64,000 bases of DNA, taken from contig CALWPF010000006.1 of NCBI GenBank assembly GCA_944383355.1, positions 429 to 64,428 on the forward strand, read 5' to 3'. How positions within the stretch are numbered: position 1 is the stretch's first letter; each line of letters opens with the position of its first letter. The translations under genes were made by a program, and so were the position numbers. The DNA is from an uncultured Clostridia bacterium (GTDB lineage: Bacteria; Bacillota; Clostridia; Christensenellales; UBA1242). The notes under the pieces were generated by a model. The model did no database searches. It was not told where the DNA came from and saw nothing but the letters and a program-made list of their open reading frames with translations. This document shows positions 3,935 to 64,000 of this stretch, one piece after another.

Positions 3935-3951
3935 GATAAAAAAGTTTTGGT

Positions 3952-3980
3952 AATGACTTGGGATAGTCATTCTGCTTTTT
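3952..3980 (+). terminator. Weak terminator-like hairpin
   Basis: aatgact (3952-3958), tgggat, agtcatt (3965-3971), then ctgcttttt. Confidence 0.35.
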
Positions 3981-4149
3981 GGTGGTTGTATAAATTTTGA
4001 GTATTTAATAGTTTAATCACAAACCGCTTTTGGTATTGGGCTGGGACTAAAAACTCATTTAAATATTAATTTTATTACTTATAAATTTGATTGATTTTTG
4101 TATACAAAATAGTAATTTGTGTAATTCACAAAAAAGTGTAATTTAACTC

Positions 4150-4677: not shown

Positions 4678-4758
4678 CAAACTTTTATGAGAAATACATA
4701 ATTATTTAGCACTTTTATACAAAAGACAACATAAAATTAACTTATTACGAGGTAAATC

Positions 4759-18858: not shown

Positions 18859-20079
18859 TTATTTTATAGTTAGTTGTGGGATAAATGTAGCTGTAGCTTC
18901 ATCGGATTTTTGAGTGTAATGTGCTACTATATCCTCAGGGCTATCCTGTATAACATGGATTACATATTCGTCTTGAGGTTGCTTTTCTTTCATCTTGTGC
19001 CACAGTATTGATTTGTCATGTTTATCCAATTTTTCTTGTTTGATTTCTTGGTAAGTTTTCTTTTCCTTTTTTACATTAGGAGATATAGTAGTTGATTTTT
19101 TGTCTGTGCTATTTGAGTTACTGTTATTTTTATCTACTTGCCTCAGCAATAGACATGAATGTTCTTCATTAGAGCAGTGTAATTCAAATTCATTTATTAA
19201 CTCATTAAAACTGTGTATATCTTCTATTGGAGTTTTAATTCTTTGCGTTACAGTTTTTTGAACAGTTTTACGGTGATGAGCTAACATCTTTGTGCCATAT
19301 TCCATACGCTCAACACTACACCCGCTTGCAGTAGGTGTAATCTTGTAATGGTGACACTCTCTCAATACTCTAAAAAATGTATCAATTATCATATCTTTTG
19401 ATAGCATTTCACCATTTTTACCAAAACTATAGTTGATTTCATGTTTTTGGACTCCGCCACGGTGACGGTGTATGGCGAGGTCTTTTATATTTTCTACCTC
19501 AGGGGCATATTCGGGATAACTATGTGCTGCCTTTGCTGAGTAATATGTAGTAGCCTGATTTATTGATATTGGTACTTTACTATCCGGTGTATAGTTTATT
19601 ACAAAATAATAATCTTTATTTAATGCAAAAAATGGTATATCCAAAAATTGTGTATAAATTAGTTTAGTATTGGTGGGTGGGATATATCCACTATGAGCGC
19701 TGTTACGGAATTTTGATGTTTCTCTATTGATGTCCAGTGGCATATCGTAATAAATTTCGTTTGCACAAGTTATAGCAATCTGTATTGATGTTTTGTCTTG
19801 GACATCTTTGCCTATTGATAGTGACAAGTCGCTATCAAACATACCTTCTTTGCATTTTAATTGTATTGGTATGACTAGTGTAGTGTCTTGCTCATCACTG
19901 TACTGCACATCAACGCTTTGCATATCACTTATTTTTGTGAATGCATTACAAAAAATCTTATTTTGTGCCATGTGTGCCATTGCATCTATGAGTAATTGTT
20001 GTTGAGTTTTGTTTAAATGTGGTGAGACTAAGTTTTGTAATGTAGATTGATTTTGGACAAAATTGGATAGAGGCGGCAT
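18859..20079 (-). CDS. Hypothetical protein (406 aa), no family recognised
   Basis: A long clean ORF with GGAGGG upstream on the minus strand. His-rich stretches (HRHRGG, AHHRK) and a Lys/Glu-rich C-terminal third. Confidence 0.6.
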   Translation of the reverse strand: MPPLSNFVQNQSTLQNLVSPHLNKTQQQLLIDAMAHMAQNKIFCNAFTKISDMQSVDVQYSDEQDTTLVIPIQLKCKEGMFDSDLSLSIGKDVQDKTSIQIAITCANEIYYDMPLDINRETSKFRNSAHSGYIPPTNTKLIYTQFLDIPFFALNKDYYFVINYTPDSKVPISINQATTYYSAKAAHSYPEYAPEVENIKDLAIHRHRGGVQKHEINYSFGKNGEMLSKDMIIDTFFRVLRECHHYKITPTASGCSVERMEYGTKMLAHHRKTVQKTVTQRIKTPIEDIHSFNELINEFELHCSNEEHSCLLLRQVDKNNSNSNSTDKKSTTISPNVKKEKKTYQEIKQEKLDKHDKSILWHKMKEKQPQDEYVIHVIQDSPEDIVAHYTQKSDEATATFIPQLTIK

Positions 20080-47360: not shown

Positions 47361-47813
47361 TTAGTCACTAACTATACAAACAGTGCCGTCTGCTTTTATT
47401 TGCAATTTGTCACCTGTTTTCACAGTATTCAAAAAGTCATCGCCCAATTTGTCAATTGCTATTATTGGACTTTCTTCCCATATGTGTGCTAGTATTACGC
47501 CACTAAGAGCTAGAGAATCTATCTCTTGACTAAACAATAATGCGCTAGGGTTGATGCCCATTTGACATATTGTTTGTATCACCAATCCTCCTGTGGTTGA
47601 GCCAATGGTGATGGGGAGACATAATATTTTGCCAGTCAATACTTTACCGTAAACATCTGGATTGTTTTGGTCACTACCTATTATTTGCTTTGCGTTTTTT
47701 AAGGCACTTTTTTGGAAAGTTGCCAGTGTATTTAGACCTTGGTGGCTGACTACCGCTTCACCTGTCAGATCTCCGCCTGCTATGACTCTGCCTTTAAAAG
47801 TATTCTTTTGCAT
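47361..47813 (-). CDS. Aconitase X small (swivel, DUF126) subunit
   Basis: ATG at 47813 lies 2 nt after the large-subunit stop, and AAGGAGGGG lies inside the upstream gene's last codons. G.A.GEAVVS....F is DUF126-like. Confidence 0.75.
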   Translation of the reverse strand: MQKNTFKGRVIAGGDLTGEAVVSHQGLNTLATFQKSALKNAKQIIGSDQNNPDVYGKVLTGKILCLPITIGSTTGGLVIQTICQMGINPSALLFSQEIDSLALSGVILAHIWEESPIIAIDKLGDDFLNTVKTGDKLQIKADGTVCIVSD

Positions 47814-47815
47814 AA

Positions 47816-49096
47816 CTATTTCCCCTCCTTTTTGCCACATAAAATATCAACTATTTCGGCATCTTGATAATATCTAGCGCCTGAATAAGTGCGCAACTTG
47901 TTGCTATTGGTAATTATAGGTTTTTTACCAGCTATGGGATTGTTTGTGTACATTAGTGGGCAGATACTACTAATCTTTGCTCCAGTGTCTATTAATTGTT
48001 GATATTCATGTTTTTTCTGGAACGCCTGCAGCACTGCAGGTGATGTGGTAAAAATTGTGCGAATAGCCAATTTTTTCTTGTTATTTTCTTGTAAAGCAAC
48101 GGTTAGTCGGTGTGTCCAGTCTACTAATTGTTCTAAAGATAGGTGTGGACAACCAATAAAGCAAAGAGTTGGTTTGGCGTTTTGATTTTTCCATAAAACT
48201 GGGTAATTGTTGTATACATTTTGTAGATATTCATCAGTAATATCTAAATGTTTTGGGCTAGTTTTTATGATAGCTGTGCCTTTTTGTATTGCCTCTGGGG
48301 TTAGATTTTGCACATGGAATAGACCTACCGCGCCGTTGCTGGCAGATGCTGCTCCCATATCTTTAAGATAGGCGCAAGTTTTTGCATCTAGCTCTTTGCC
48401 GAGGAATTTATCCAAGCCTTTGATAAATGGCACGCCATCTCCGACTGCCATACCTATAGCGCTACCTAATACTTGTGCCTCAGGTAGAGTAGTGGTTTTG
48501 ATATTTACTACCCAATTTGCCTCTCTGTTTTCGTCTAGCAATAGCCCAAACTCTGGTACTTTACCTATTATATTACCAAATAAGTCTATCATACCACTAT
48601 TGCGGTTACATCGAGCACCTAGTACGGAGTTTGCATATACTACGGCGCTACTTTCTGCCCAAGACAATATATCGCCCATCTTTGGAGTATTGCCCACCTC
48701 AGGTAGATAACATGTACAAGTAAAATCACTGGGCTTGCGTAGTCCTACTTTTTGCAATTGCTCCTCATATCTTTTTTGTTGTCCATACATTATTTTGCTA
48801 AAGACTAATTTATTCAAAACATTGCATTTTACATTTTTGTAATCAATTGGTCTAGGGTCAGCTGTAAATTGCCATTTGGATTTGATACCTGCATCAATAA
48901 TTTCGTCCATGATTCTAAATAATGGTTTAATCAAACTGATACCAAATGATGTTACTAGGTGTCCCTCATGTGTTACGGGTACTAGCCGTTTCGCCCCCGC
49001 CATATCTCCAAACATTACTAGAGTTTTCATGATTTTTGCCATGGTTTCGCCTTGGCTACCATTGAGTATTTCTTTTTCCTCCGTTGTGAGTTTCAT
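47816..49096 (-). CDS. Aconitase X large (catalytic, DUF521) subunit
   Basis: LTTEEKEILNG..GE..AKIMK..V..GD..GA..LVPVT..H is a typical DUF521 N-terminus. 426 aa. Confidence 0.75.
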   Translation of the reverse strand: MKLTTEEKEILNGSQGETMAKIMKTLVMFGDMAGAKRLVPVTHEGHLVTSFGISLIKPLFRIMDEIIDAGIKSKWQFTADPRPIDYKNVKCNVLNKLVFSKIMYGQQKRYEEQLQKVGLRKPSDFTCTCYLPEVGNTPKMGDILSWAESSAVVYANSVLGARCNRNSGMIDLFGNIIGKVPEFGLLLDENREANWVVNIKTTTLPEAQVLGSAIGMAVGDGVPFIKGLDKFLGKELDAKTCAYLKDMGAASASNGAVGLFHVQNLTPEAIQKGTAIIKTSPKHLDITDEYLQNVYNNYPVLWKNQNAKPTLCFIGCPHLSLEQLVDWTHRLTVALQENNKKKLAIRTIFTTSPAVLQAFQKKHEYQQLIDTGAKISSICPLMYTNNPIAGKKPIITNSNKLRTYSGARYYQDAEIVDILCGKKEGK

Positions 49097-49476
49097 ACCT
49101 TTCTCCTTTTTGAGTTGATGTGGGGATTATACACATAAATTGCTGACAAAATACGGCTGTGATTAATAAATGCAAAAAATATAAAAAACTTGTCGCATAA
49201 GAGCTAATATTCCCCCATTTTTCGACAATAAAATTATAACTAAAAAATAATTAAAATACAATCAATTTGATGTTTATTTTGACACTTTTTTCAAAATTAT
49301 TTATTGTGTAGAATGGATATTATTTTTTGTGCTTTTAATAGTTATTTTTTGTTATATTTATTTGACTTTTTGTAGATATATTTACTACAATAAATATTGT
49401 AGTATTATGGCGTTTTTTGTAAATAAAAAATAGCAATGAACGCAAACTATTTTTAGTAAGGTTGTAGGAGTAAGAT

Positions 49477-49542
49477 ATGAGGAAAAGTTGGGGGATAATA
49501 TCGTTAGTATTTTGTGCTTGTTTATTGTGTTTTGCTGGCTGT
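49477..49542 (+). other. Lipoprotein signal peptide with a lipobox-like FAGC (Cys22)
   Basis: MRKSWGIISLVFCACLLCFAG|C: a basic N-terminus, a hydrophobic core, then A-G-C. Confidence 0.65.
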
Positions 49543-52500
49543 GGTAATATTTATGCTAATATGAAAATTACTACCAATTGTGATGACAATTTGATGGAGA
49601 TAGTAATCAATACTGATGACCCAGAGAGTTACAGCACATCTTTTGAGGCCACATTGACAGGTTATTCTGCTGGCATGAATACTGGCGTTGATGTGATTTT
49701 TAGCCCTACTGGAGTTGCTACTTACTCGGTTTTGAGCGAGGCCGATGGTGTGAGTAGAATACAGGTGACAGCTATAGCAGACAATCTCAGTACTGCTGGG
49801 GCTACTACCACCATGACCGTGGTTTCAAGAGAAAATAGTAGTATTCGTTCTGACCCTATTACTCTCAATGTTGTTTTGCCAGTAACGGGCATTACTGCTA
49901 GCAGTGCTACACCTAGCCTGATGGTAGGTAGTAGTATGACACTGCAGACAGATAATCTTATCAACTTTATTCCTTCTGCGACAACCCAACGAGATGTTTC
50001 GTATCAAATAGCTCCTGGTTATGAATTGGCTGGAGTATCTGTTGACGGCAATGTTATAACTGCAAATGATACAGCTAGTACAGGTATAGTCAAGATCATT
50101 GCTACGTCGAGTACAATTATGCCTGAGATGACGCAAGAGCAGATAGACGCACTCACCTGTGAGATTAATTTGATGGTATATAACCCTATTACAGGTGATG
50201 ATATTTCACTTGTAGATGTAAATGGCAATGATATAGATGCCTTTACTATGGCTACTGCATCTGATGAGATTAATAGTAGTACATTTAGGATAGAGGTAGA
50301 TACAGGTAATCTTGAGTACAGGGTAAATGCCTCAATTCAAAATGCTAGGATTGCATACGCAGAGCCTAGCGATGATGACCCTAGTAGGTATACCTTAAAT
50401 GCTTTTGAGATAGGTGAGACAAATCTCGATGTGTCCGTCATATTGTATGACCCCGAGACTGGGAGAGATTATTTGAATATTCACCGTTATGTATTTGTCG
50501 AGGTTATACAGATTGCCTACTCAGTGCAATTTACTACTGCTAGTATTACTACGCCAACAGACCAGAGTATAGAGATAAATGTTTTAGAGCAGTCTGCTAC
50601 TACTAGAGGTACTGAGGTGCATGTCAATATTGAGCCAGAGGGGGCTCAAAATAGGCAATATTCTATATCAGTACATGAGATTGATGGTGAAACTGAGAAC
50701 TTGCAGAGTAGATTGCCTAGTATACTCGTATACCATTATGTCAATGGTGTGCGAGAATTGGTTACATTGGAGGAGCAGGCTGGAGATATTAGCGAGGCAC
50801 TGCTCAATAACGATACATCATTCTATGTTTGCTTTACAGGTGATGGTGTAAAAGAGTATTTTACACTGGCTGTCAGTGCCAATTCAACAGACCCTAATAT
50901 TCCAAGTGTTGTAAATTATGTAAAATGTAATATTAGGGCAGGGGTAACCTCTATCTCGGCTGCCGTTAATGGTAACAATGTAGAGGGCGCTATATATATG
51001 GGTTTATTAGATGGACAAAATGAATTGCCATTGACTATAAACTATTCCACAACTGGTGGAGTGTCCGTCGGAACACAGATTTTTAATATCGTATTTGATG
51101 ATGACGGCGATGGTGAATTTGATGATAATGGTTTGGTAACTGCTGAGCGTACTAGTGAATTTAATATATTCACATTGCGAGCGCAAAAAGAGGGTACTAC
51201 TACTATGCGTATTACCTCAAACGAAAATGAAAATGGTATTTATAGAGATTATCTCATTCACATTTTGGTAGAACCTACTGAGTTAAATTTTGATGTCGAT
51301 ACCACAGTAGCAATTAGCCAAGGAGGCAAAATCGCTTCTGCTGAATACAACAGGATAGAGAGTGATGTGGAGGCTGATGACTTTGGACTCAGGAATATGT
51401 ATCTAACACTCAATACCGAGTTGGCACTAGGGCTATTTGCGACCCCTGCCAATAGTACCATTACTGATTTGGTCATTACATCTAGTGATTCACATACGGT
51501 TAGTGTAGATGGCAACAAGATAAGAGCTGTTGGCGTTAATATTACGACACCTACCTATATTACAGCCACATATACATATTGGCAATATCACGAGATTTAT
51601 GGTTGGCAGATGATGGACGGTGTACGAGAGTTTACTGTTTATGTATTTGTACCTATCAAAAACTTTACATGGGCAGGTAGTGGTGAGATAGATACCAACT
51701 TGTTCTTGTATGATTCTACTGCTCTGTCATATGACAGGAGCAGTGCGGGTACCGCTACTGTCACAGCGACAGTGCAGTCTACTGGTACAAACTATGCTAC
51801 ATATCAGACTATACATTGGCAAAATACAGATGGCACCACTTTTTATGATACTGATTATCTGACTATTACTCCTAGATCAGATGGTAGGAGTTTTGATGTA
51901 ACTGCTCGATTAAAAGATGGCGAGACTAGCGCCTCTACTACATTTTATCTAGTGTTGATGGAACCAGGGGCAGTATATACACTGAGTTGTACAGTGCACA
52001 TTACCAAGCCTCAATTGGTTACTAGTATCACCTCGGATACTGGCACGGACGGCATATACCTAGAATATGGTGGACTTAGCCAGCGTGATAACGCTAGTTT
52101 TGCGGTGGAGACCAATCCGTTAAATGCCTATGACTCAAGAGTTGCATACTTTATAGCAAATGCTGAGAATGTTAATGGAGTAATACAAAAGACTGGTAAT
52201 TGGTACTCAGAGAGGGCTACAGCACTTGGGTTAAACATTTCCTTGGCTAATAATGTGGTTAGGGCTCTAGGTAGTGGCTATGCTATCATTAGGGTAGTTC
52301 CATATGATAATATTCATGTCAATTTAGATGCATTTAACCCAGATGAATTAGGCGAGGGCAATACATATTTGGATATAATAGTCACCATAGCTAATGGTGA
52401 TGACAACAATCCATTCCAATTGTACAATGCAGATGATTTGTTGGCACTCAGCCGTACTGCCAATACTATCAGTTTGTCAAAGACTTATGTATTGATGCAG

Positions 52501-55500
52501 ACTATAGATATGACTGGTCGCACTTGGACTCCTATTGGTAGCGGTACCGCTGATGGATTTACTGGTAAATTTGTCAGCAATGGTTACTTTAATAACACAG
52601 ATATTATGTACTCAATTATAGGTTTATCATTGAGTGCTAGTAGTAATGATGATGGTTATTACTCTGGATTATTTGCAAAACTTACTGGTGCAACAGTAGG
52701 CGGTATACAAATACGTGCTAGCCAGGCTAACTTTGACATGACAGGCGCTAGCAGTGGTGTGGCTGGGTATTTTGGCTTGTTAGCGGGTGAGATTGTAAAT
52801 TCTAGTGTCAAAGATGTGAGTGTATCAATGCAAAACAACGTTAGTTTGTTGCAAGTGAGTGCCGGCACTGGTAATAATACTGTTTACTTTGGTGGTTTGG
52901 CTGGATACATAACAGGTGGTGCTAGTGATAGTTTGCAGGATATTAGCGTAGACCTAAATGTCAATGTCGACTCTAGTGACCAAAGTATACTGTATGTTGG
53001 TGGATTGGTTGGTTATCTTGGGCAAACATTGAGTACAACAAAGTCAAGTAGCGTCAATTTGACATTAGCATCAAATGGCACATTTAATAACGCAAATTTG
53101 ACCAATTCAAATATTGGAGGTGTTGCTGGTTACCTTGCTAGTGGCAACCAATTGATAGGTTATTATTCTAGCGGAACTATCACTACACTTGCTCTAGATA
53201 ATGTAGGTGGCTTGGTAGGGTACAATGCTGGTATAATTAATTCTAGCGAAACTTCTATGAGGTTGTATGCGCGCAACAATGTTGGAGGAATTGTTGGATA
53301 CAATATAGGTAATCTAGTAGAATGTGTAGTTGAGAGTTATGATAGTGAGACCTTGCCTGCCGAAAATATTTACGCTGTGCGTGGAGTTAGCAATGTAGGT
53401 GGATTGATAGGATTTAGTGCGGGTGGTAATGTGAGGTATTCTTACTTGTTGAGTTATATCCGTACTACCAACAGGACGATGGCTAATCCTCGATTGCCGA
53501 CTATTGTTGATCAGACAGGTAGCTTTTATGGAGATATCATAGGTAATAGTAATGTAGGTGGATTGATAGGTTACAATAGGAATACCACTGTGACAAATAG
53601 CTTTAACAAAGCTCAGATTAGTATATATAGCGAGACAGGCTCTGGCTTTGGCGGTGGACTATTTGGATATATGGAGGCTATTGAGAGCTTTGAGGTTAGC
53701 AATAGTTTTGCAAATAGTGTAATATTGGCGGGTGCATACAACGAGAGCGCAAACAAAGTTGGCGAAATTGCTGGTAATGTTGTAGCAAACAATACTATTA
53801 ATATGTACAATGTTTACGCTAGAGTGCAGATTGACAGATTTGATGAGAATTTTGAGTACAAATATCTATTACAACAGGCATATGGTAATACTAGTGGATC
53901 CTTGAGCACAAATAATGTTTATTATTATGGTACGACTGGTACAGGCGCTGTTGATTCGTTGGATAAATTCCATAATGATAGTAGCACTGGTGGAGCATTG
54001 ACCAATTTGCCTGCTGGCTCAATCTCAGGGGGCTCATATGGTGATAATGTTTATTGGATAAATATTGCTGACACCATAGGCTACAATGATGATGCACTTA
54101 TTTTGGTAAATAGTGACAAAAATGGTATGCTGTACAAGCAAACCATTCAAGAGATACAGATAGACCAAATAAAGACAGAGGACGCAAGCGCTCAAGATAG
54201 CGTATTGCCTACCTACTTTAGTTTTAGCAATGGATTAGTTATAAATCTTGACAATTTGTGGGATAGTGCTACTCAGTCGTATCGTTCGCTCGCTATAAAT
54301 GATTTACTGAGTCTGGTAGTTGCGCCAATTATTGTCAACGAAGACGGTGTAGAGGACCCTAGTCTATGGCAACTAAATGTCTTGTCTAGTGATGCATCAA
54401 TAATGACAGTTTACAAGCCAAATCGTAGTCTGGAGGGGGCTACACTGACGTTTGCATCTACTGGAGTAGTGGTATTGACCATACAGTCAATGCAAGATTT
54501 GAATGCTCGTGCGAGCGTAGAGATAAATGTTATTGCTGGACTAAACTCATTTGATTTGCAAAATAATGCTGGACAGAGTGTTGCAAATACTATTGTGAAC
54601 GTTAAAAAGACTAATTCTGTTAATTTAACACCAGTAGTTGGGCAAAGTACCAATTTGATTAATGATGTTGCTGTAATGTATAGCATTGATAAAGATTTTG
54701 AACAGTTCTTTAACCTCAATGGTTATGCATGGAGTGATGCTGGAGCAATTAATTTACCAGTTAGGAATACTACACACTCTATTCGTGGAGTAGAGTCTAC
54801 CCTAGAGGATACAATTACTGTGACTGCCACACCTTATGTGACCGTGATATTTGGGGGTTTGCAAACTAGGTTATATCTCAATGGTGAGGGTATTGGCGCT
54901 ACAGGTAGAGTAGCAAAAGATTTGAGGCAAAATTTTGAGGTCAGAGTATACAATGGTCTAACGGCAGCTAATCTGGATACATCTTCTGTAGAATTGTATT
55001 CTAGTGATAGTTATACTCTGGACTTGGATTTTATCAGTGATTTGCCTGAATCTGTTGTCTGTGAGCTTGTAGGTGATGACTACGAAACAATGTTGGCAAA
55101 CGGCTACATATCTACATACAAAGATAGTGACAATAATAGATTCCAGTTTTACTTTGAAATACCAGAGGACGGTGGGTCTATTAGTAATATAGCAGATTCC
55201 AATAGGTATCTAGAGTCAGATTTGGTGTACAATTTTACCATAAATCTAATAGATTCAGAGATTAATGAGACATACCGCTCGTATGATGTGTGCGTTACAT
55301 TTAAACCAACACCAGTTTCTCATATTACTACAAGATTTTATCAAAATGGTGAGAGTGGTATAGAGGCTGATGATGTGCCAAATAATGAGATTACACCAGG
55401 TCGTCGAGCAATAATGATAGTCAATGTTAGTGATTATTTTGCTTATTACGATTATATAGAGGTTAGCAGTACTAGAGACCCTGTTACTGGTGATACAGTG

Positions 55501-58500
55501 AGTCTTACCCAAGTGGTTGACACTGGTAGGAGCGACGGTAACGAGTCTAGGTTCCAGACCATATACGGTGGGTCTCAACAGATAGATGGCAAGTTGATGG
55601 CTATGCCAGTAACGCAACAAACTTTTGACGACCAGGGCAATTTAGTAAGTAGTGTATATCAAGATGGTATTATATATATCTCTGCGATTATTGGTAGTGA
55701 TGTGCCAGAGGGGACAGTATTTACATTGACTCTGCGTGCTATCAAAGAGGGGGCTACCAGTGAGCCTTGTACTGCATTAGTTACATTGACATCTTGTTTT
55801 GCTCCTCGTGTGACCTTGTCTGCAGTTAATAACAATTACGACCAGATTTTGGTAGCAAAGGGTACTGTACTAGAGCTCAATATGTCTGGTATAGTACAAA
55901 ATACAGAGGTAAATATTACAGCTGACTACTATGGTACTGCTGATGACTATGGCAATATTAACGATGAGCAGACTATTTGTAGATTTATAGATAATGGACA
56001 GGGTTATACTAATGTATTTACATATATGACAGGAGAGCGAGAGACAGTACAGACCAATGTTCGTTTTTATGTTGGTATGGCAGCTGCCCCTACTCGAGGA
56101 GTTATTACTCTTACTGTTAGGTTGACGACAATACTTGAGGACAATGTTCGCTCTGAGAGCGTATTCGCTGAATACCGGATATATGTTGTAGACTATTTGG
56201 TAGACAATATCTATATGGAAGGCATTGGTGACAATAATACATTTGTAATCAATCCTACTAGTTATACTATATTCCGTATGGCTTGGGATTTGCGTGAGCA
56301 AGATAGTGATGTATTTGAGACCTATATCAATACTGAGAACAATGTACAATACACAAATAACTTTTCATCATGTAGGCAGACTATCATTGCCAAGGCTGAC
56401 CAAGATTTGCTTTTATTAAATTCAAAGGGTGCTACAGGAATAGGTGACAGTATATGGAGCGTGTATACCAATGGAGCTTATGCATCTATAGGGGCAGGAT
56501 ATTCAGGTAATGGATTTACTCTAGAGCCACAAGAGATAGATGGCAGGACATATTTTTGTGCCAAAGGTATTAGGATAACAACTGGTATCTCTATGAGGGC
56601 GGACTTGTTTACTAAATATGTGTGGGATTCTAATAATACTGTAGGTTGTTGGCAAATGAGCACCAATGAGCAAGATGCTAGAGAGACTTTGGTAATGGCT
56701 GAGCGTGTATATAACTTTACTATGAATGTAGAGAATAGTTCTACTGATGATTCGCCTTATAGTGTGGCTACAGCACAAGATTTGAGAGATATGCAGGCGG
56801 GAGCGGCGTACATGCTGACTGCTGATATAGACTTGTACAACTGGGCGCCTCTAGATACAGCTATACAATCTCTTGACGGTAACGGATACACAATTACTAT
56901 TCATTCCTTTGCAGTGAGTGCTATGTCTGGCTCCACTACTACCAATATCGGTTTGTTTGGTACCTTGCCTCAAGGGACAGTGTTAAAGAATTTAATTATA
57001 GATGCCTCGTATCTAGCGTTTGTTGATGCTCGTAACTTTGCCACTGTAAACTTTGGAATAATCGCAGGTACCAACAACGGTGTTGTCTACAATAGTGATG
57101 TAATTGTTACTGCAAACGAGGCAACATGGTATGCAATGAATGCTGATGCTATCAATACAAATTTATCTTTTGTACCACAATTTGGGCGAGATGTATTCAA
57201 TAGCTGGTTGGGTACTAATGAGGGCGGTATGCAAACAGGAAAAGCTACCACTATAGTATTGACTAGCAGTACTGTGTCAAATAATAGTGTTACCTCATAC
57301 ATAGGTGGTCTAGTAGGATACAATAGCACTACTGGTAGTGTGACAAATTCTAGAGTTGGTAGTCTTGAGAGAGTTGGTTACCTAAATTATAATGCTCAAG
57401 GTGTCCAGGTTACTGGTGAGCAGGGTAGTCAAGGATTGAATATTATGGCAAGTGGCAATGTGGCAGGTTTGGCTGGTTACAATGCTGGTGTGGTATCTGC
57501 TAGTTACTATGCTAATGGTTACATTGTGAATTCACAAAATAACGCACAGAATACTCGTACTGCAGGATTGGTTGCAGAGCAGGTAAGTACAGGTAGGATT
57601 AATACATCTTATGTTGCAGGTGTCAAGACTGCTCAGACCAAAGACGTTTTGCGCTTTACTGATGGTGGTATTATGTCATACGGTACAGTAGGTGGCTTAG
57701 TACACACCAATGCAGGTTTTGTAGAAAATTGTTACACAAATATTCCATTGCTGAGTTCCAATGGAATTGGAGGCTTTGTATACCAAAACAGTGGTGAGAT
57801 TTACAAATCTGTCTCTTTGTCGACAATTCGTGAAAATAGGCGTACTAGTGGTAATTTTGTAGGAATTGATGCAAACATTGATGTACAAAATACTGGTACA
57901 ATATCTCAATGTTACTACTTGTATCAAGATAATGTCATTATGAATTCTGATGAGCCGGCTACTGCGTTGACAGCAGAGGAATTTACTGATGTAGATGGTA
58001 AATATTTGCAAGGTTTTGCATTTGGTATAGATACATATGGTCAAGACGCTGTGGCTAATGTGACTTGGGAATTGACAAGTTATACCGATGGTAACAATAG
58101 TTATGTTATACCAAACCTAGTAGAGGCTGATAATATTACTACCTCATATAGAGGTGAGTTGGCAGGAGCCAGTGCAGATGCATTTACTCGTCCAGCATCT
58201 TGTCAATTGGGTAGTGAGGTAAATCCTATAATTATTAGTAGTGTTGCTGATTTTAATAGGATATTCAATCAAAATGTTGGCTCGGGCAGTAATTATGACA
58301 ACAAATACTATAGAATTGTTAGTGATATAGACTTTGATGGCGGTAGTCCAGCATACTCAATGAGAAGAGAATTCAAGGGGTATATCCAAGGTAATGGTAT
58401 GCGTATTAGTGGCTTGAATGTAGTTTACCAAACATCAACTGGTGATATGGGTAACATTGGATTGTTTGCAATGATTACTGGAGGAGTTGTTGCAAATTTG

Positions 58501-61500
58501 GAGTTGCAACTTGACAATGAGATTAGTGCGGGGCTAACCAACAGGGTAGGTGCATTGGCTGGTACTATTGGTGATGATACCGTGGATAGCAATGGTGAGT
58601 ACGACCTGACTGTGGTGGAAAATATCCGTGTCAGCGGTATGCCAAACACGACTGGGGCCATGGTACAGGGCTTGAATATGGTAGGTGGATTGGCTGGTTT
58701 TGTATGTGGTAGGACTATAATTCAAAATATTGAGTCTACTATATCTGTATATGCTACTTACCAGACCCCTAGCAACGCAAAAATTTCGTATTATGAGGGT
58801 CAAAGTTCCTCTGGTCTGGTTAGCGAAATGTCTTATGCAGGTGGAATAATCGGTGTAGTATCATTGATTGATGGTATCACTGATGTAAATTATGATGAGA
58901 ATCCTACTATAAAGGGACTCACGGTGAGTCAAGGCGTAGATATTTTGGCTGAGACTAGTGGTGGTGTGATAGGTTCATTATCAACTGGAGCTATTACACG
59001 AAGCGTATTTGAGGTAGATGCTGCATACACTCCTCGTATTCGTGCATCAAACTTTGCTGGTGGATTGGTTGGCGAAAATAGAGGCACTATACTGGAGAGT
59101 TGGGTATCTCAAGAGATGAATGCGCAAATAGCTAGTGACCGTAGCATTACTAGTGCTAGCAATGCTCAAGACTATTTAGGCTATACTGGTCTATTCCAAA
59201 ATGATGAGGAAGTTATTGCAATAGGTGGTCTAGTGGGACTAAATAGAGGCGGTACTATTAGGAATAGTTACTCAAGAGAGGCTGTACTATCAGACAATGC
59301 GTTGATTGCAGGTGGTTTAATCGGTGTTGCTGTACCATATTTTGATAGCAGTAGTGCTGATTATGCTTACTTGACAGATTTGGTAATAGATAGGGAGCAG
59401 ATATTTGACTGGCAATTTAATACTCAAGTGACGTACAATAGTGATACAGAGGTTGTTAATGCATACAACTCATACGCTGGTACAATTGCTCAGGCTTATA
59501 CTACCAGTCCTGTATTTGCCACGACTGCGACTGGTGGTGCAATAGGCTTGCTCGCTGGCTCGTTTATCAGTAGTGGAGCAGATTTATCACCAGATATAAT
59601 GGCTATTAATAATTATCCAGAGACTGATCGTTATAGCACAACCACAAACATTACAGATGATAGCAGTTATGTGGGTGGATTGGTAGGTTATATCAATATG
59701 AATCTACAGATGGCAGAGGGAGTATCTGGTGTGCCTACTATAGCAGTATTTGTGAGTGGTGCATCGACTGAGGTAATATATTCCGATGCTAGTATTTATA
59801 TAGCAAATGGTATAGTGGATAATGATATTGGACATATTCAACAGAGTTATGGCGGATATTCTTCATTATCCCAGATCAATACTGTCCTGTCTCTCAACTA
59901 CATAAATGTTGCAACAGATTCATCTATAAATTGTTTTGACGGTCTGATGCAAGTAGGCGATGTGTGGGCTGTAGATATTGAGCGAACAAATACTATATTC
60001 CCAGTACTAGCCTACGGCGAGGAGAGGACTGAGATAGAGATTAGTACTGCTGATGAGTTGTTTGAGGCATTGTTGGGCGGTGCTAGTGCGTCATACTACA
60101 AGGTAGTAAGAGATATTGTAATTGATGATGTCACATGGTATAGATATGTAGGTACAAAAGGCACTTTGGCTGGTAGTACTGATACCTATATCAATGGGCA
60201 GTTGTACGGTGCTGTGCCTGATGGAGAGGACACTCGCTCTGCGACAATAACATTGCAAATTTCGCAAACCAATGGTAACTTGGATAGATTCAACTCATTA
60301 TTTGGCTATACTAGAAACTTTACAGTAATGGATATGGATTTTGTCTTTAAATTTGTAGATGGTAATACTTACAACAATTATACAGCTACAGACAAGGCGA
60401 ACTTTGCATTATTAGTTGCTAGTGGTACCAATACAACATTTAGGAATATTAGTATCACTAGTCGAGACCAAGATGATAATGTAGCACCTCTCAATATTAC
60501 ATTAAATAATGTTACTAATTATGGTACTTTTGTTGCAGTAGGCGAGAGTTGCTCATTTAACAAAGTTACTACCAATGTAGCATTGACGGTAAATAATACG
60601 ACAGTATCAGATGAGGCAAGCATAGGTGGCTTGTTTGGAAGTGTAGCGAATAGTGTGAGAGTCGCTGGTGCAGTCGAGGTAGAGGTAGACTTTGATACCA
60701 ACTCAAGCGCTGGCGTGATAAATGTTGGTGCAATAGGTGGATACGCTAGAGATGCTTTCTCAGTTGAGTTGATTAGTACTGGTCTAGATAATGGTAACAT
60801 TTGGGGTGATATTGCAGTAACTGCTGGTAATACCGCATATGTAGGAGGTATGATTGGTAAAAATGGAGGTAATGGATATAGCAAGATATCTGCTGTGGTA
60901 TCCAATGCCAACATAGATGTTACACTCAACTCAGGTGTTAGCGAGGCATACGCTGGTGGACTAATGGGATACATGCTAGACACTAATGCTAGCGATAGTG
61001 CTAACTATGGTAGCATATCTCTATCAAAGAATGCAGACAGTGGAGTATTTTATGTCGGTGGTATTTCTGGTAGGATAGAGAATACTGGTACTCTACTAAC
61101 TCTAGTAAATCTCATCAATGGTAGATTGGTGAGCGGTATGACAAACTATGGAGATATAACTGTAGATATCGGTACCGGAGTTGTCTATGCAGGTGGTATA
61201 TTTGGCCAAGCAAAATATATAATGAATACAACACCATCAGGTACTACTAGGAATGTATTTACTGGACTTGCATCGATGGGTGATATTAATGTTGACAGCC
61301 AAGGTACTGTTTATGCAGGTGGTTTATTTGGTTATCTAGCACAGGCGTTTGGCAGTACTGAAGTTTGTAATAATACCTGCCTACGAGTAGCATCTAGCGT
61401 TAGTCTGTCTAATATAGCTGTACAAAATGCTACTACAATGTATGTAGGTGGTTTGGCTGGTTACAATGGAATGGCTATCTATAGCAGTTTAGCCAATGCA

Positions 61501-64000
61501 AAAGTGACTGCTACAAGTACACAGGCGAATGTTGCTTATGTTGGTGGTGCTATAGGTAATCAATGTTGTTATTTGAGTGGTTCTGTAGTGCTGAGTACTG
61601 TTATGTTGAGTGCTAATATGGGTTATGAGACTGTTAATATGGGTGCAATATCCGGTACTAATGGTACTTATGGTAGGATAATATCCGTTTATTATGTTCC
61701 AGAATTGGTTGGAATTTATGATAATAATGGAATTATCATTAGTTTAGTAGACTTAGATGATTGGCAAAATACTATGACTGGACTATCTACTGAGATATGG
61801 ATGCAATCTATAGTTCCTGATGGGACAAATAGCAACTATACCTTTATGTATCCTAGTGAGGTGCGCAATAGTATTGATGCTAACGATGCTCGTATGTATA
61901 TACTGCATTTGAGTACAGATGATATGTCGATAATATGGGATAGTCAATTTGCTAATGCTGATTATGCTGATGCAACATTGATGTTAGATTTTGATACAGT
62001 AGATGTTAGTCAGTTTGATAACAATGTTGATTTAAATAATATCCGTAGATTGATAGGTAAGACTACAGGTACTAGTATCAATGTAAATCAAAATAATCAA
62101 GCTATCACAGTTAGCAATGCTAGCGGTAATTGTGCTGTGTTTGACTCAATTAGTCTAGGAGTATTGGTATCCAATATAAATATTAATGCACCTACGATTA
62201 ATATAGAATCTGCTAGAACAAACGCAAATATAGCAATATTTGTCGCAGAAAACCACGGTAGTTTATTTAACTGTAGTGCAGGACAAATACCTTTGGCTAG
62301 TAATAATGTACCTACACTTGCTGAGTTTGCAAATAATTTGACAGAATCAACTGGTTACAACTATGGTAATGCTAACATTAGATATACTGCGAATGTGCTG
62401 TATCCGACTAACTCTTATGTTACTGACGATCAGAGTACATTGGTTTACAAGGGCACAAACAGAGTAAATATCGCTGGATTGTGTGCTACTAACTATGGTA
62501 ATATTGCTGGTAGCTATACCTATGTAGATATAGTTGTAGGGAGTAATTCATCATCAAATGTTGGTGAGTTGGTAGCGGACTCAAGCAATAGTCTTATTAG
62601 CAACAGTTTTGCAATGGGTAGGATAACTTATGCTGGTCAAGCATCTGGAGATACTGTTGGAGGACTGGTAGGTAATGCTACCAATACTAGGATTAGTACT
62701 AGCATAGCAAATGTTAACATATACCTTAGTGCTAATACAGATAGTAGTAATATCTCAAACATAGGTCTAGGTATAGGTCGCATGAGTAATAGTGTAATGA
62801 GGGGAGTTATCGTAAATAGTGATATCTCTATGGCTCATGACTTGACAAAGTTTAATACTAATTATGACCTGGCACTTACTACATATTCCTCATTGGATAC
62901 CAATACAGGTAGGAATATGGGTATGAGTGCAACAAATACTAACACAAACAGTTTATTTAGTAATAGCGTGTCTGGATACAATTTTGATTTTATAAATATA
63001 TGGGCACAAGATTACACGACTAATTATGGTATACCTTATCTGCGTGGTATGAATATGACAGTGGGTAATACTGGTAATGGGCGTACTGCTAATCCTTTCC
63101 AGATTTTTGAGGGTATACAGTTTACACGGTTAGCTGAGACAGACGGTATTATAGCTGTATTGTCTAGAGATATAGTGTATATTGGTAAAGACTATACTAC
63201 TAGCTCGGATATTCGTAGTAGGCTAGATGGTAGAGGTCACTCTATATATGTGGTTCGCTATAATACCTTTACAGTCAAGGCTACACCAGATCCAGATGAT
63301 AATACTTATATTACATATATTGGATTATTCCATAATTTGACTAGCAGTGCAGAGGTTAGGAATGTAGCAATAGTTGGTGCATATCAGACCTATGATATGA
63401 GTGGCAATATTGTGTTTGGTGCTCTCGCTGGTACAAGTAGTGCTAGGTTAGCTAATGTAGCTGTAGCTGGTGTAGCGACTAGTGCTGGCTCTGGAGTGCA
63501 ATTTAGCAATGCATCAAGTGAGTCTAGTATGGGTGGTATTGTCGGTATCAATAATAATACCACAATATCTCAGAGTTGGGCTGATCTGGATATAATTGTG
63601 AACAATGGCTCTGTAGGAGGTCTCATAGGTACACAGAATAGTAGTAGAGATGGTGATATTAATTTATCAAAAGTATTTACGCTATCTACCTTGTCATCAA
63701 GTGGTCCTGTGGGAGCATTCATTGGTAATACCGTGAATAGTGCTGGTTCTGGCAGTATAAGAATCACTAACAGTTATTATCACGAGTTTGTGGCTAATCC
63801 TACCTCATTTACCACAACACAATTTGTTGGTGGAGGAAATATGTCGGCAACCTTGTCAAATACATATTTTGTGTATTCTAGCGGTTCGTTATTGAGAATA
63901 GCTCTAGTTATGGCTGATGGCTCTACCAATGATATGTTGGCAACTGATGCAAGAGCACAAAGTCAATTATTTGGTGAGGGCGTTAGCGACACTTGGGAAA
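49477..64000 (+). CDS. Giant surface lipoprotein (more than 4,841 aa, 3'-truncated by the window end) with Ig-like regions and reiterated GLUG-like beta-helix modules
   Basis: ATG at 49477 lies 7 nt after AGGAG. Every printed sequence line from 49501 onward starts on a codon boundary of this frame, and I met no TAA, TAG or TGA when translating through to base 64000. All other ORFs listed in this interval are short and out of frame or antisense. Confidence 0.9.
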   Translation, partial: MRKSWGIISLVFCACLLCFAGCGNIYANMKITTNCDDNLMEIVINTDDPESYSTSFEATLTGYSAGMNTGVDVIFSPTGVATYSVLSEADGVSRIQVTAIADNLSTAGATTTMTVVSRENSSIRSDPITLNVVLPVTGITASSATPSLMVGSSMTLQTDNLINFIPSATTQRDVSYQIAPGYELAGVSVDGNVITANDTASTGIVKIIATSSTIMPEMTQEQIDALTCEINLMVYNPITGDDISLVDVNGNDIDAFTMATASDEINSSTFRIEVDTGNLEYRVNASIQNARIAYAEPSDDDPSRYTLNAFEIGETNLDVSVILYDPETGRDYLNIHRYVFVEVIQIAYSVQFTTASITTPTDQSIEINVLEQSATTRGTEVHVNIEPEGAQNRQYSISVHEIDGETENLQSRLPSILVYHYVNGVRELVTLEEQAGDISEALLNNDTSFYVCFTGDGVKEYFTLAVSANSTDPNIPSVVNYVKCNIRAGVTSISAAVNGNNVEGAIYMGLLDGQNELPLTINYSTTGGVSVGTQIFNIVFDDDGDGEFDDNGLVTAERTSEFNIFTLRAQKEGTTTMRITSNENENGIYRDYLIHILVEPTELNFDVDTTVAISQGGKIASAEYNRIESDVEADDFGLRNMYLTLNTELALGLFATPANSTITDLVITSSDSHTVSVDGNKIRAVGVNITTPTYITATYTYWQYHEIYGWQMMDGVREFTVYVFVPIKNFTWAGSGEIDTNLFLYDSTALSYDRSSAGTATVTATVQSTGTNYATYQTIHWQNTDGTTFYDTDYLTITPRSDGRSFDVTARLKDGETSASTTFYLVLMEPGAVYTLSCTVHITKPQLVTSITSDTGTDGIYLEYGGLSQRDNASFAVETNPLNAYDSRVAYFIANAENVNGVIQKTGNWYSERATALGLNISLANNVVRALGSGYAIIRVVPYDNIHVNLDAFNPDELGEGNTYLDIIVTIANGDDNNPFQLYNADDLLALSRTANTISLSKTYVLMQTIDMTGRTWTPIGSGTADGFTGKFVSNGYFNNTDIMYSIIGLSLSASSNDDGYYSGLFAKLTGATVGGIQIRASQANFDMTGASSGVAGYFGLLAGEIVNSSVKDVSVSMQNNVSLLQVSAGTGNNTVYFGGLAGYITGGASDSLQDISVDLNVNVDSSDQSILYVGGLVGYLGQTLSTTKSSSVNLTLASNGTFNNANLTNSNIGGVAGYLASGNQLIGYYSSGTITTLALDNVGGLVGYNAGIINSSETSMRLYARNNVGGIVGYNIGNLVECVVESYDSETLPAENIYAVRGVSNVGGLIGFSAGGNVRYSYLLSYIRTTNRTMANPRLPTIVDQTGSFYGDIIGNSNVGGLIGYNRNTTVTNSFNKAQISIYSETGSGFGGGLFGYMEAIESFEVSNSFANSVILAGAYNESANKVGEIAGNVVANNTINMYNVYARVQIDRFDENFEYKYLLQQAYGNTSGSLSTNNVYYYGTTGTGAVDSLDKFHNDSSTGGALTNLPAGSISGGSYGDNVYWINIADTIGYNDDALILVNSDKNGMLYKQTIQEIQIDQIKTEDASAQDSVLPTYFSFSNGLVINLDNLWDSATQSYRSLAINDLLSLVVAPIIVNEDGVEDPSLWQLNVLSSDASIMTVYKPNRSLEGATLTFASTGVVVLTIQSMQDLNARASVEINVIAGLNSFDLQNNAGQSVANTIVNVKKTNSVNLTPVVGQSTNLINDVAVMYSIDKDFEQFFNLNGYAWSDAGAINLPVRNTTHSIRGVESTLEDTITVTATPYVTVIFGGLQTRLYLNGEGIGATGRVAKDLRQNFEVRVYNGLTAANLDTSSVELYSSDSYTLDLDFISDLPESVVCELVGDDYETMLANGYISTYKDSDNNRFQFYFEIPEDGGSISNIADSNRYLESDLVYNFTINLIDSEINETYRSYDVCVTFKPTPVSHITTRFYQNGESGIEADDVPNNEITPGRRAIMIVNVSDYFAYYDYIEVSSTRDPVTGDTVSLTQVVDTGRSDGNESRFQTIYGGSQQIDGKLMAMPVTQQTFDDQGNLVSSVYQDGIIYISAIIGSDVPEGTVFTLTLRAIKEGATSEPCTALVTLTSCFAPRVTLSAVNNNYDQILVAKGTVLELNMSGIVQNTEVNITADYYGTADDYGNINDEQTICRFIDNGQGYTNVFTYMTGERETVQTNVRFYVGMAAAPTRGVITLTVRLTTILEDNVRSESVFAEYRIYVVDYLVDNIYMEGIGDNNTFVINPTSYTIFRMAWDLREQDSDVFETYINTENNVQYTNNFSSCRQTIIAKADQDLLLLNSKGATGIGDSIWSVYTNGAYASIGAGYSGNGFTLEPQEIDGRTYFCAKGIRITTGISMRADLFTKYVWDSNNTVGCWQMSTNEQDARETLVMAERVYNFTMNVENSSTDDSPYSVATAQDLRDMQAGAAYMLTADIDLYNWAPLDTAIQSLDGNGYTITIHSFAVSAMSGSTTTNIGLFGTLPQGTVLKNLIIDASYLAFVDARNFATVNFGIIAGTNNGVVYNSDVIVTANEATWYAMNADAINTNLSFVPQFGRDVFNSWLGTNEGGMQTGKATTIVLTSSTVSNNSVTSYIGGLVGYNSTTGSVTNSRVGSLERVGYLNYNAQGVQVTGEQGSQGLNIMASGNVAGLAGYNAGVVSASYYANGYIVNSQNNAQNTRTAGLVAEQVSTGRINTSYVAGVKTAQTKDVLRFTDGGIMSYGTVGGLVHTNAGFVENCYTNIPLLSSNGIGGFVYQNSGEIYKSVSLSTIRENRRTSGNFVGIDANIDVQNTGTISQCYYLYQDNVIMNSDEPATALTAEEFTDVDGKYLQGFAFGIDTYGQDAVANVTWELTSYTDGNNSYVIPNLVEADNITTSYRGELAGASADAFTRPASCQLGSEVNPIIISSVADFNRIFNQNVGSGSNYDNKYYRIVSDIDFDGGSPAYSMRREFKGYIQGNGMRISGLNVVYQTSTGDMGNIGLFAMITGGVVANLELQLDNEISAGLTNRVGALAGTIGDDTVDSNGEYDLTVVENIRVSGMPNTTGAMVQGLNMVGGLAGFVCGRTIIQNIESTISVYATYQTPSNAKISYYEGQSSSGLVSEMSYAGGIIGVVSLIDGITDVNYDENPTIKGLTVSQGVDILAETSGGVIGSLSTGAITRSVFEVDAAYTPRIRASNFAGGLVGENRGTILESWVSQEMNAQIASDRSITSASNAQDYLGYTGLFQNDEEVIAIGGLVGLNRGGTIRNSYSREAVLSDNALIAGGLIGVAVPYFDSSSADYAYLTDLVIDREQIFDWQFNTQVTYNSDTEVVNAYNSYAGTIAQAYTTSPVFATTATGGAIGLLAGSFISSGADLSPDIMAINNYPETDRYSTTTNITDDSSYVGGLVGYINMNLQMAEGVSGVPTIAVFVSGASTEVIYSDASIYIANGIVDNDIGHIQQSYGGYSSLSQINTVLSLNYINVATDSSINCFDGLMQVGDVWAVDIERTNTIFPVLAYGEERTEIEISTADELFEALLGGASASYYKVVRDIVIDDVTWYRYVGTKGTLAGSTDTYINGQLYGAVPDGEDTRSATITLQISQTNGNLDRFNSLFGYTRNFTVMDMDFVFKFVDGNTYNNYTATDKANFALLVASGTNTTFRNISITSRDQDDNVAPLNITLNNVTNYGTFVAVGESCSFNKVTTNVALTVNNTTVSDEASIGGLFGSVANSVRVAGAVEVEVDFDTNSSAGVINVGAIGGYARDAFSVELISTGLDNGNIWGDIAVTAGNTAYVGGMIGKNGGNGYSKISAVVSNANIDVTLNSGVSEAYAGGLMGYMLDTNASDSANYGSISLSKNADSGVFYVGGISGRIENTGTLLTLVNLINGRLVSGMTNYGDITVDIGTGVVYAGGIFGQAKYIMNTTPSGTTRNVFTGLASMGDINVDSQGTVYAGGLFGYLAQAFGSTEVCNNTCLRVASSVSLSNIAVQNATTMYVGGLAGYNGMAIYSSLANAKVTATSTQANVAYVGGAIGNQCCYLSGSVVLSTVMLSANMGYETVNMGAISGTNGTYGRIISVYYVPELVGIYDNNGIIISLVDLDDWQNTMTGLSTEIWMQSIVPDGTNSNYTFMYPSEVRNSIDANDARMYILHLSTDDMSIIWDSQFANADYADATLMLDFDTVDVSQFDNNVDLNNIRRLIGKTTGTSINVNQNNQAITVSNASGNCAVFDSISLGVLVSNININAPTINIESARTNANIAIFVAENHGSLFNCSAGQIPLASNNVPTLAEFANNLTESTGYNYGNANIRYTANVLYPTNSYVTDDQSTLVYKGTNRVNIAGLCATNYGNIAGSYTYVDIVVGSNSSSNVGELVADSSNSLISNSFAMGRITYAGQASGDTVGGLVGNATNTRISTSIANVNIYLSANTDSSNISNIGLGIGRMSNSVMRGVIVNSDISMAHDLTKFNTNYDLALTTYSSLDTNTGRNMGMSATNTNTNSLFSNSVSGYNFDFINIWAQDYTTNYGIPYLRGMNMTVGNTGNGRTANPFQIFEGIQFTRLAETDGIIAVLSRDIVYIGKDYTTSSDIRSRLDGRGHSIYVVRYNTFTVKATPDPDDNTYITYIGLFHNLTSSAEVRNVAIVGAYQTYDMSGNIVFGALAGTSSARLANVAVAGVATSAGSGVQFSNASSESSMGGIVGINNNTTISQSWADLDIIVNNGSVGGLIGTQNSSRDGDINLSKVFTLSTLSSSGPVGAFIGNTVNSAGSGSIRITNSYYHEFVANPTSFTTTQFVGGGNMSATLSNTYFVYSSGSLLRIALVMADGSTNDMLATDARAQSQLFGEGVSDTWE
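49879..50112 (+). other. Big_2-like Ig domain within the giant protein
   Basis: PVTGITASSATPSLMVGSSMTLQTDNL..PSATTQRDVSYQIAP....VSVDGNVITANDTASTGIVKIIATS follows the bacterial Ig-like group 2 pattern. Confidence 0.6.

Follow-up and report, generated by a model that had tools for sequence, protein, structure and literature searches.

Does the apparently gene-free end of a chromosomal fragment from an uncultured Clostridia bacterium carry a real gene and, if it does, what might so large a protein do at the cell surface? The question is raised by a 64,000-nt stretch of DNA (contig CALWPF010000006.1 of assembly GCA_944383355.1, positions 429 to 64,428; hereafter the window), the final 14.5 kb of which are empty in the list of open reading frames (ORFs) supplied with it, while a first-pass annotation made from the letters alone read them as one giant lipoprotein gene. 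As set out below, the product of this gene is predicted to be a very acidic, secreted lipoprotein of ~4,871 residues and ~0.5 MDa, built from Ig-like (immunoglobulin-like) arrays and beta-helix modules, and it probably serves as a membrane-tethered adhesion or polymer-binding fibre.

A single continuous reading frame

Translation by program of window positions 49477–63999 (+ strand) gave 4,841 codons and zero stops, in agreement with the earlier codon-by-codon reading; the ORF takes up the final 14.5 kb of the window and is still open at base 64000. It is missing from the ORF list for the sole reason that had been presumed, namely that the list excludes frames running off the window. The proposed start, ATG at 49477, is indeed preceded by AGGAG (6 nt spacer) and also by an in-frame TAA at 49471–49473, so that it is the first possible start of the gene; the predicted N-terminus reads MRKSWGIISLVFCACLLCFAGC. 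In four independent metagenome assemblies with contigs long enough (L001–L004) the full product is called at 4,871 amino acids (aa), and the window therefore stops only ~30 codons short of the stop codon. The first-pass annotation was right to expect a product of more than 4,841 codons but overstated what is missing: only ~30 residues lie beyond the window, and relatives indicate that they form a tail rather than the C-terminal anchor that it expected there.

Authenticity of the giant gene

The same locus was traced in other assemblies by exact look-up of the adjoining aconitase-X gene, and was found to recur in six independent assemblies from different samples. Four of the six copies show no difference from the window in the 5.7–9.6 kb available. 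The copies in L002 and L004 differ from it by 68–72 substitutions in 9,618 nt (0.7% divergence), with 52–56 synonymous versus 16 non-synonymous codon changes, 0 indels and 0 stops, a pattern that indicates purifying selection on the giant gene. Tandem Repeats Finder detected no tandem repeats in the gene, and BLAST of the protein against itself revealed only weak likeness (28–42% identity) between its blocks of GLUG motifs. Repeat-collapse misassembly was rejected on these two grounds.

An artefact, be it an assembly error (chimera or collapse) or a pseudogene in decay whose frame is open by accident, might still be suspected in view of the fact that the sequences come from metagenomes only and that the 3′ part of the gene is without a match among 185,579 GTDB representative genomes. 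Such an origin is contradicted by the recovery of the same sequence from six independent assemblies of different samples, by the lack of DNA repeats able to collapse, by the ratio of synonymous to non-synonymous changes and by the existence of nine co-linear homologues of equal length; nor can a stop-free run of 14.5 kb at 39% GC be due to chance. The misassembly against which the first-pass annotation had cautioned is excluded for practical purposes by the six assemblies and the absence of repeats, and the artefact explanation as a whole is effectively refuted already.

Neither an exact search with the terminal 81 nt of the window nor a protein-guided scan with aa ~4342–4841 found a match in the 185,579 species representatives of GTDB r232. 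The locus is thus absent from these representatives for this region, yet it recurs in several metagenome assemblies from the European Nucleotide Archive (ENA) and Logan. The host appears to be an uncultured lineage without a representative genome, at least at this region.

Six homologous modules and two Ig-like arrays

The body of the protein had been described as a Big_2-like Ig domain followed by long tracts in which the motif (V/I/A)GG(L/I)(V/A/I)G(Y/F)N recurs more than 30 times. All five examples quoted were recovered at their positions, but the strict motif has only five occurrences in the protein, and one of the examples (IGGLVGLN) breaks the motif it was meant to illustrate. A figure of about 30 degenerate units is nevertheless reasonable and well beyond what chance would give: GG[LIVFMA][VAILTSC]G, the relaxed core, is present 23 times, compared with 0.78 ± 0.85 in 500 shuffles, and a self-built unit profile recognised ~29 units, clustered at aa 1131–1381, 2602–2746, 3062–3421, 3709–4073, 4387–4415 and 4678–4737. 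Just upstream of each cluster lies a module head of the form NPxxI...DL...YxL..DID...GxF.G...GNGxxI..L...GLF, and each module also carries a W...[YF]PxL tail.

For comparison of the modules, the alignment of the protein family described below was cut into eight regions, which were aligned profile versus profile using HHalign. The six modules (M1–M6) were homologous in all 15 pairs (probability 93.7–99.6%, E 2e-7 to 6e-25), most of the alignments starting at the module start, while comparisons involving either Ig region gave a probability of at most 0.3%. M1 matched M2–M6 at 97–99.6% (M4 at 99.6%, E = 6e-25), M5 matched M2 at 99.2% and M6 at 99.4%, and M6 matched M1, M2 and M5 at 98–99.4%. The picture of long tracts therefore has to be replaced by one of six discrete homologous modules, making up ~63% of the chain; the Ig-like arrays account for the other ~37%, a stalk of more than one third of the protein that the first-pass annotation had missed. 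The features of the gene, all on the forward strand, are the following.

49477..49542 (+): predicted signal peptide II and lipobox, aa 1–22, MRKSWGIISLVFCACLLCFAG–C; predicted lipidated residue Cys22
49543..52383 (+): putative Ig-like array A, aa 23–969; ~9 beta-sandwich domains, a number estimated from length
52384..54156 (+): predicted beta-helix M1, aa 970–1560; head NPFQLYN...DID...GxF, then 7 GLUG units at aa 1131–1381
54157..56721 (+): Ig-like array B, aa 1561–2415, as modelled; ~8 beta-sandwich domains and one long helix
56722..58221 (+): beta-helix M2, aa 2416–2915, as modelled; family-invariant SLDGNG head motif at aa 2465–2470
58222..60021 (+): beta-helix M3, aa 2916–3515, as modelled; 8 GLUG units, tail motif WAVDIERTNTIFPVL at aa 3497
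60022..61866 (+): predicted beta-helix M4, aa 3516–4130; ~9 GLUG-like units (self-profile)
61867..63081 (+): predicted beta-helix M5, aa 4131–4535; degenerate, one clear GLUG unit
63082..64000 (+): predicted beta-helix M6, aa 4536–4841 and on; head NPFQIFEG...DGRGHSI, cut by the window ~30 codons before the stop

Domain searches and structural models

Scanned as a whole, the protein had no match to any Pfam family, but when it was searched in 500-aa pieces, GLUG (PF07581) came up in aa 1001–1500 at 46.5 bits (cut-off 20.5 bits, E = 3.1e-12, six stretches), which bears out the earlier assignment to this family. The null result with the whole protein is probably due to filtering on a long, compositionally biased sequence. 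GLUG scores in aa 2501–3000 and 3001–3500 (19.0 and 18.9 bits) were just below the same cut-off. Generic GLUG proteins, 101 in all and drawn from many phyla, matched M1 with 24–35% identity, the alignments covering as much as 90% of the module; the tail signature was present in 83 of these and the head signature in 42.

An AlphaFold2 model of M2-M3 (aa 2416–3515, alignment of 10 sequences, pLDDT 67, pTM 0.74) consists, in its confident parts, of stacks of regular 3–4-residue strands, with M2 forming a confident beta-solenoid over model residues 10–400 and the last ~150 residues of the model being of low confidence. The best Foldseek matches were the beta-helices of M26 IgA1 proteases (7uvl, 7uvk, 7jgj; probability up to 1.0), followed by Ag43, tailspikes, fucoidan and alginate lyases, GH110, pertactin, UpaB, a serine-rich repeat protein (SRRP) and pectate lyase, and all top matches are right-handed beta-helices. 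The model thus supports the beta-helical nature proposed in the first-pass annotation, M2-M3 being predicted to adopt a right-handed parallel beta-helix fold, and the HHalign homology would extend this fold to M1, M4, M5 and M6.

Support for the Big_2-like Ig domain was divided. The Big_2 profile (PF02368) reached 11.3 bits (E = 0.34) in the window protein, short of its cut-off of 22.8 bits, with no match at E ≤ 0.01 in aa 1–970, and array A gave no significant Pfam or PDB match. In relatives P0108 and P0110, Big_2 scored above the cut-off (31.8 and 25.2 bits, respectively) in the part co-linear with array A, where T2SS-T3SS_pil_N was also seen in relatives at 34 bits; from these sequences we infer that array A is Ig-like. 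The AlphaFold2 model of aa 1561–2420 (family alignment of 8 sequences, pLDDT 76) is nearly all beta and resembles a string of beta-sandwiches. Its Foldseek matches (Nup210, titin I65-70, PrgB, complement MG domains, SbsC/SbsB/Sap and cadherins) had a probability of 1.0 and low TM-scores, as expected of flexible arrays, and the model supports array B as a tandem Ig-like array. Hence the Ig-like fold is upheld by modelling and by the Big_2 matches of the relatives, while the Big_2 profile itself is not. The sole long alpha-helix predicted in the otherwise all-beta array B (aa ~2290–2316, window ~56344–56424) precedes a family-invariant G..GG.W segment, and may be a hinge or interaction element.

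PDB sequence searches with aa 1–970, 970–1560, 1561–2420 and a family profile of M2-M3 returned no relative. No catalytic domain was found in Pfam (whole and chunked) or NCBIfam scans of the giant protein; NCBIfam gave nothing meaningful, and a 15-bit match to TIGR01414 in the Ig region was sub-threshold. HEXXH is absent from the window protein and no such motif is conserved in the family, and the wall-binding domains SLH and CWB2 had no Pfam match in the giant protein.

A family of co-linear giant proteins

An exhaustive phmmer search with aa 1401–2600 against 1.84 billion representative proteins produced 38 matches, nine of which were co-linear giants of 4,811–5,324 aa. The closest relative, P0102, shares 52.8% identity over 4,687 aligned positions, and the other eight 27–32% over ~4,400 positions. 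Homology extends from end to end, with aa 2400–2800 and 3000–3300 best conserved and M2 the best-conserved part of the family (conservation 0.40–0.48). Array B has sequence relatives only inside the family, and identity of the giant protein to any protein outside it does not exceed 35%, over modules only. All nine giants come from Clostridia/Bacillota metagenomes or metagenome-assembled genomes and represent nine 50%-identity clusters among the 1.84 billion representatives. The only two public records, MBQ9786250.1 (Clostridia bacterium) and MCL2540140.1 (Bacillota bacterium) at NCBI, are both labelled ‘Ig-like domain-containing protein’ only, and the contig of the closest orthologue originates from a municipal-landfill metagenome (PMC9723747).

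Word-indexed homology searches with aa 4001–4841 and aa 1–900 found no relatives, but no protein longer than 1,034 aa was returned from this index, nor any of the giant protein's own metagenomic copies. A reading of the gene as an orphan was therefore rejected in favour of the nine giants retrieved by the exhaustive search. Judged by co-linearity, size and lipobox, together with a C-terminal cap seen in the relatives, the window protein is a member of this family, which is small, previously undescribed and of a fixed ~5,000-residue architecture. Family members are very acidic (net charge −158 to −266) and confined to a handful of uncultured Clostridia lineages. What sets the family apart is a six-module architecture that is fixed, non-repetitive and conserved in order, along with a predicted N-terminal lipid anchor on a protein of ~0.5 MDa.

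The two ends of the protein

A lipoprotein-type signal had been proposed at the N-terminus, and the giant protein was the only match to the G+LPPv2 pattern among the window's 51 ORFs (G+LPP lipoprotein patterns reportedly go back to Sutcliffe and Harrington in 2002 and Rahman et al. in 2008). It has the sequence features of a lipoprotein substrate, i.e. a basic n-region, an h-region and a lipobox Cys (Cys22) within ~35 residues. The lipobox is conserved in all nine relatives: its Cys falls at position 22–25 in 10/10 family members (P0105 counted from internal Met21), all of which share a layout of two basic residues, hydrophobic core, lipobox Cys and G(D/N)xYAx(M/L)x(I/V). The hydrophobic core of the signal peptide is also the only transmembrane (TM)-like segment in ~5,000 residues. 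Within aa 13–22 (49513–49542) three extra cysteines (C13, C15 and C18) stand ahead of the family-conserved Cys22, and a PROSITE-type lipobox core fits C15 as well, which makes the cleavage site slightly ambiguous in this species.

At the other end, 9/9 complete relatives terminate in a conserved ‘W...PYLxxVTP’ cap followed by 10–40 variable residues. Their last 60–120 residues contain no LPXTG and no hydrophobic stretch, and no wall-binding domain or TM helix was found at the C-terminus of any of the nine. The window protein breaks off at ‘...SDTWE’; the aligned residues of P0102 are ‘...DVWD’, after which this orthologue has another 27 residues (CTGNAHIGQTTLPYLIGVTPLNCRDLG). As this non-anchor tail fits the ~30 missing residues and the relatives are anchorless, the C-terminal anchor anticipated in the first-pass annotation is, from sequence comparison, almost certainly nonexistent, and the N-terminal lipid is predicted to be the sole attachment of the protein. 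A polymorphic toxin or contact-dependent inhibition (CDI) effector was rejected, there being no variable C-terminal toxin domain and the relatives stopping 10–40 residues past the last beta-helix cap.

Proposed function and rival explanations

By analogy with proteins of similar folds, we favour a membrane-tethered adhesion or polymer-binding fibre, at a probability of roughly 0.6. In such a mechanism, Sec would export the protein, Cys22 would receive the lipid and signal peptidase II would make the cleavage, and the lipidated N-terminus would hold the protein at the outer face of the cytoplasmic membrane. Array A (~945 aa) would act as a spacer that carries the remainder through and past the cell wall; distal to it, one beta-helix module, a second Ig-like spacer (~855 aa) and five consecutive beta-helix modules would form a long fibre. 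The GLUG-type right-handed beta-helices would bind a ligand outside the cell, for which polysaccharide or the surface of another cell is the most plausible candidate, and the fibre would attach the cell to substrate, partners or biofilm.

Such a mechanism fits the current reading of GLUG proteins and beta-solenoid giants (PMC9723798, PMC12863079, PMC4021314), in that an adhesin role has been proposed for GLUG proteins of gut microbes (PMC9723798) and the beta-solenoid giants of Apilactobacillus have been read as glycan or cell binders (PMC12863079). Modules of generic GLUG proteins are partnered with surface-display domains, among them LPXTG, OmpA, a type IX secretion system (T9SS) tail, fn3 and Big_2. 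The probability is put at the value above because the GLUG module is without a demonstrated function and its fold class includes polysaccharide-degrading enzymes.

A number of points count against the fibre interpretation. The adhesive role is an analogy with fold classes that also hold lyases and tailspike depolymerases, and M2-M3 are more strongly conserved than would be required of a mere spacer or adhesin, for which a catalytic or specific receptor function could be the reason. The Foldseek E-values for M2-M3 are marginal (best 1.1e-3) and one third of that model is of low confidence; modelling covers array B and M2-M3 only, and the window's own protein was read to ~30 residues before its end. 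Moreover, the wall-spanning picture hinges on whether the host has one membrane or two.

Some of these points lend themselves to a different explanation, namely a membrane-tethered multi-enzyme in which the six modules, or some of them, act on polysaccharides as pectate-lyase-like lyases, hydrolases or depolymerases and the Ig arrays are spacers, so that the protein would degrade extracellular polymers beyond merely binding them. The M2-M3 match list does contain fucoidan lyase, PL6 alginate lyases, GH110, chondroitinase B, pectate lyase and phage tailspike depolymerases, the highly conserved M2-M3 part has invariant polar residues (D, R, Q, H) among its structural G/N columns, and the closest orthologue stems from a polymer-degrading landfill community. 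We nonetheless consider this unlikely, given that structural matches of probability 1.0 are solely to the non-catalytic beta-helix of IgA1 proteases and those to lyases and hydrolases reach at most 0.35, that no CAZy-type or peptidase domain of Pfam or NCBIfam was seen at any threshold and no PDB sequence relative even by family profile, and that GLUG modules elsewhere pair with separate catalytic domains such as M26 and are not themselves the catalyst (PMC4021314). It is a long shot that the six modules, instead of duplicating one another as adhesive repeats, each have their own binding or catalytic specificity in a membrane-tethered, non-cellulosomal ‘assembly line’ capturing and processing complex polymers, with M2-M3 as an unrecognised GLUG-fold active site; if true, this would give the GLUG module its first biochemical role. 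A structural envelope component (a scaffold that resembles an S-layer or organises the wall, or else a protein of the spore surface or of an appendage) would be suited to a fixed end-to-end architecture at a single conserved locus, as expected of a housekeeping structural role, and to the presence of sporulation genes (spoVT, a spoVB-like flippase gene and yqfD) around the gene; the Ig-array model also matches the S-layer proteins SbsC, SbsB and Sap. These matches are, however, no better than those to titin, cadherin and complement arrays, the sporulation neighbours lie on separate transcription units, and the flanking AcnX, GlyRS and DegV genes are unrelated housekeeping genes. S-layer proteins are typically of 40–200 kDa, abundant and self-assembling, in contrast to the size seen here, and no SLH, CWB2 or other wall-binding domain was found, S-layer membership thereby lacking its SLH/CWB2 Pfam match. 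An envelope role is consequently regarded as distinctly improbable, and the membrane-tethered binding fibre remains the preferred reading.

Genomic setting

The window has ~36% GC with a strong positive GC skew, and contains core genes for ValRS, DnaG primase, YqfD, GlyRS, DegV, a SpoVB-like flippase, YetF, SpoVT and aconitase X, while no tRNA or Rfam families were found in it. The locus is part of the chromosome of a spore-forming, low-GC Bacillota/Clostridia-type organism and is neither a mobile element nor a prophage; a prophage tailspike or depolymerase was rejected, the surroundings being core chromosome. The aconitase-X gene acnX and the giant gene are divergent with a 380-nt spacer between them.

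49100..49476 (+): divergent intergenic region with promoter-like sites and ribosome-binding site AGGAG

Six promoter-like sites were counted in this region versus 3.9 expected, as consensus matches only. Downstream gene order was read in the P0102-type orthologue on contig L007, not at the window's own locus. Directly 3′ of its stop codon lie a GC-rich hairpin and a T-run, resembling a terminator, and beyond these are convergent genes for signal peptidase I and inorganic pyrophosphatase. This arrangement and the divergent gene on the upstream side in the window point to a giant gene that is monocistronic and without dedicated partner genes, so that the partner genes which the first-pass annotation supposed to be still unseen are unlikely.

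Just downstream of the closest orthologue is a 1,520-aa ORF (L007:12895–17457, +) without a Pfam match, of low complexity and rich in charged, Q, N and P residues; it is flanked by S26 signal-peptidase-I-like genes at L007:11280–11963 (−) and L007:17796–18710 (+). In the core-gene part of the window itself, two sizeable ORFs at 1011–2609 (+, 532 aa) and 18859–20079 (−, 406 aa) have no Pfam match at E ≤ 1e-5. The ORF of the aconitase-X swivel (small) subunit (47361–47840, −) overlaps that of the large subunit (47816–49096, −) by 25 nt in its longest form, and the gene calls of the assemblies give the small subunit 150 or 159 aa, which leaves its start codon ambiguous.

Comparison with known systems and significance

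Similarity to M26 IgA1 proteases (Zmp) and GLUG surface proteins is evident from the GLUG match above cut-off and from the solenoid matches of M2-M3 to 7uvl, 7uvk and 7jgj, but the giant protein has neither the M26 catalytic domain (no Peptidase_M26 match in Pfam scans) nor HEXXH, and an IgA1-type protease identity was rejected. With many generic GLUG proteins it shares a DGNG..I signature at the module head and a W...[YF]P.[LV] signature at the tail; it differs in having six modules per chain, compared with typically one in the matches of ≤1,034 aa, and a predicted N-terminal lipid anchor instead of an LPXTG, OmpA or T9SS tail.

The nearest described analogues in terms of logic are Giant1–5 of Apilactobacillus kunkeei (3,000–8,000 aa; PMC12863079), which are likewise very large, elongated, acidic, extracellular proteins of Bacillota, known mainly from prediction, with beta-solenoid domains that have been interpreted as tips, borne on long stalks, for binding glycans or cells. 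No sequence homology between them and the giant protein was detected. The kunkeei giants have a signal peptidase I (SPI) signal, one N-terminal beta-solenoid, a long stalk of imperfect repeats and a C-terminal SH3b-like/DUF5776 wall-binding end (PMC12863079), so that their tip is N-terminal and their attachment C-terminal. The order here is reversed, with the predicted lipid at the N-terminus and the beta-helices towards the C-terminus, and the stalks are Ig-like arrays encoded by non-repetitive DNA.

SRRPs and MSCRAMM/Bap-type adhesins are comparable as fibrillar proteins in which beta-solenoid and/or Ig-like domains are combined with a stalk, and an SRRP (5nxk, L. reuteri) and PrgB (8beg) were among the structural matches of our models. 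These adhesins need a C-terminal LPXTG, and SRRPs also serine-rich glycosylated repeats and an accessory Sec, none of which is seen here; with the complete relatives lacking LPXTG, membership of the LPXTG adhesins or SRRPs does not apply. The autotransporters Ag43, pertactin and UpaB share the right-handed parallel beta-helix, used there for adhesion or aggregation, and Ag43 (4kh3) ranked second among the structural matches of M2-M3, although the Foldseek probability of autotransporter matches was ≤0.35. Autotransporters are proteins of diderm Proteobacteria with a C-terminal outer-membrane beta-barrel, a domain that the giant protein lacks apart from the sub-threshold TIGR01414 match, and this identity was also rejected.

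Finding a protein of ≥5,000 aa in a database is not unusual (PMC11573180). Nor is this a new kind of system: its kinds of domain are familiar, and so is the general ‘stalk plus beta-helix’ logic. The combination of a predicted N-terminal lipid anchor with distal beta-helices is an unusual polarity for a giant of Gram-positive type. Genes for giant surface proteins are routinely fragmented or missed in metagenomes and passed over by annotation, as illustrated here by an empty ORF track and an empty whole-protein Pfam scan; with the word-indexed search also negative, standard pipelines would label this gene an unannotated orphan. Six diverged GLUG copies in one chain are useful material with which to work out the role of a widespread module, and how uncultured anaerobes attach themselves to their substrates and partners depends on giant surface proteins.

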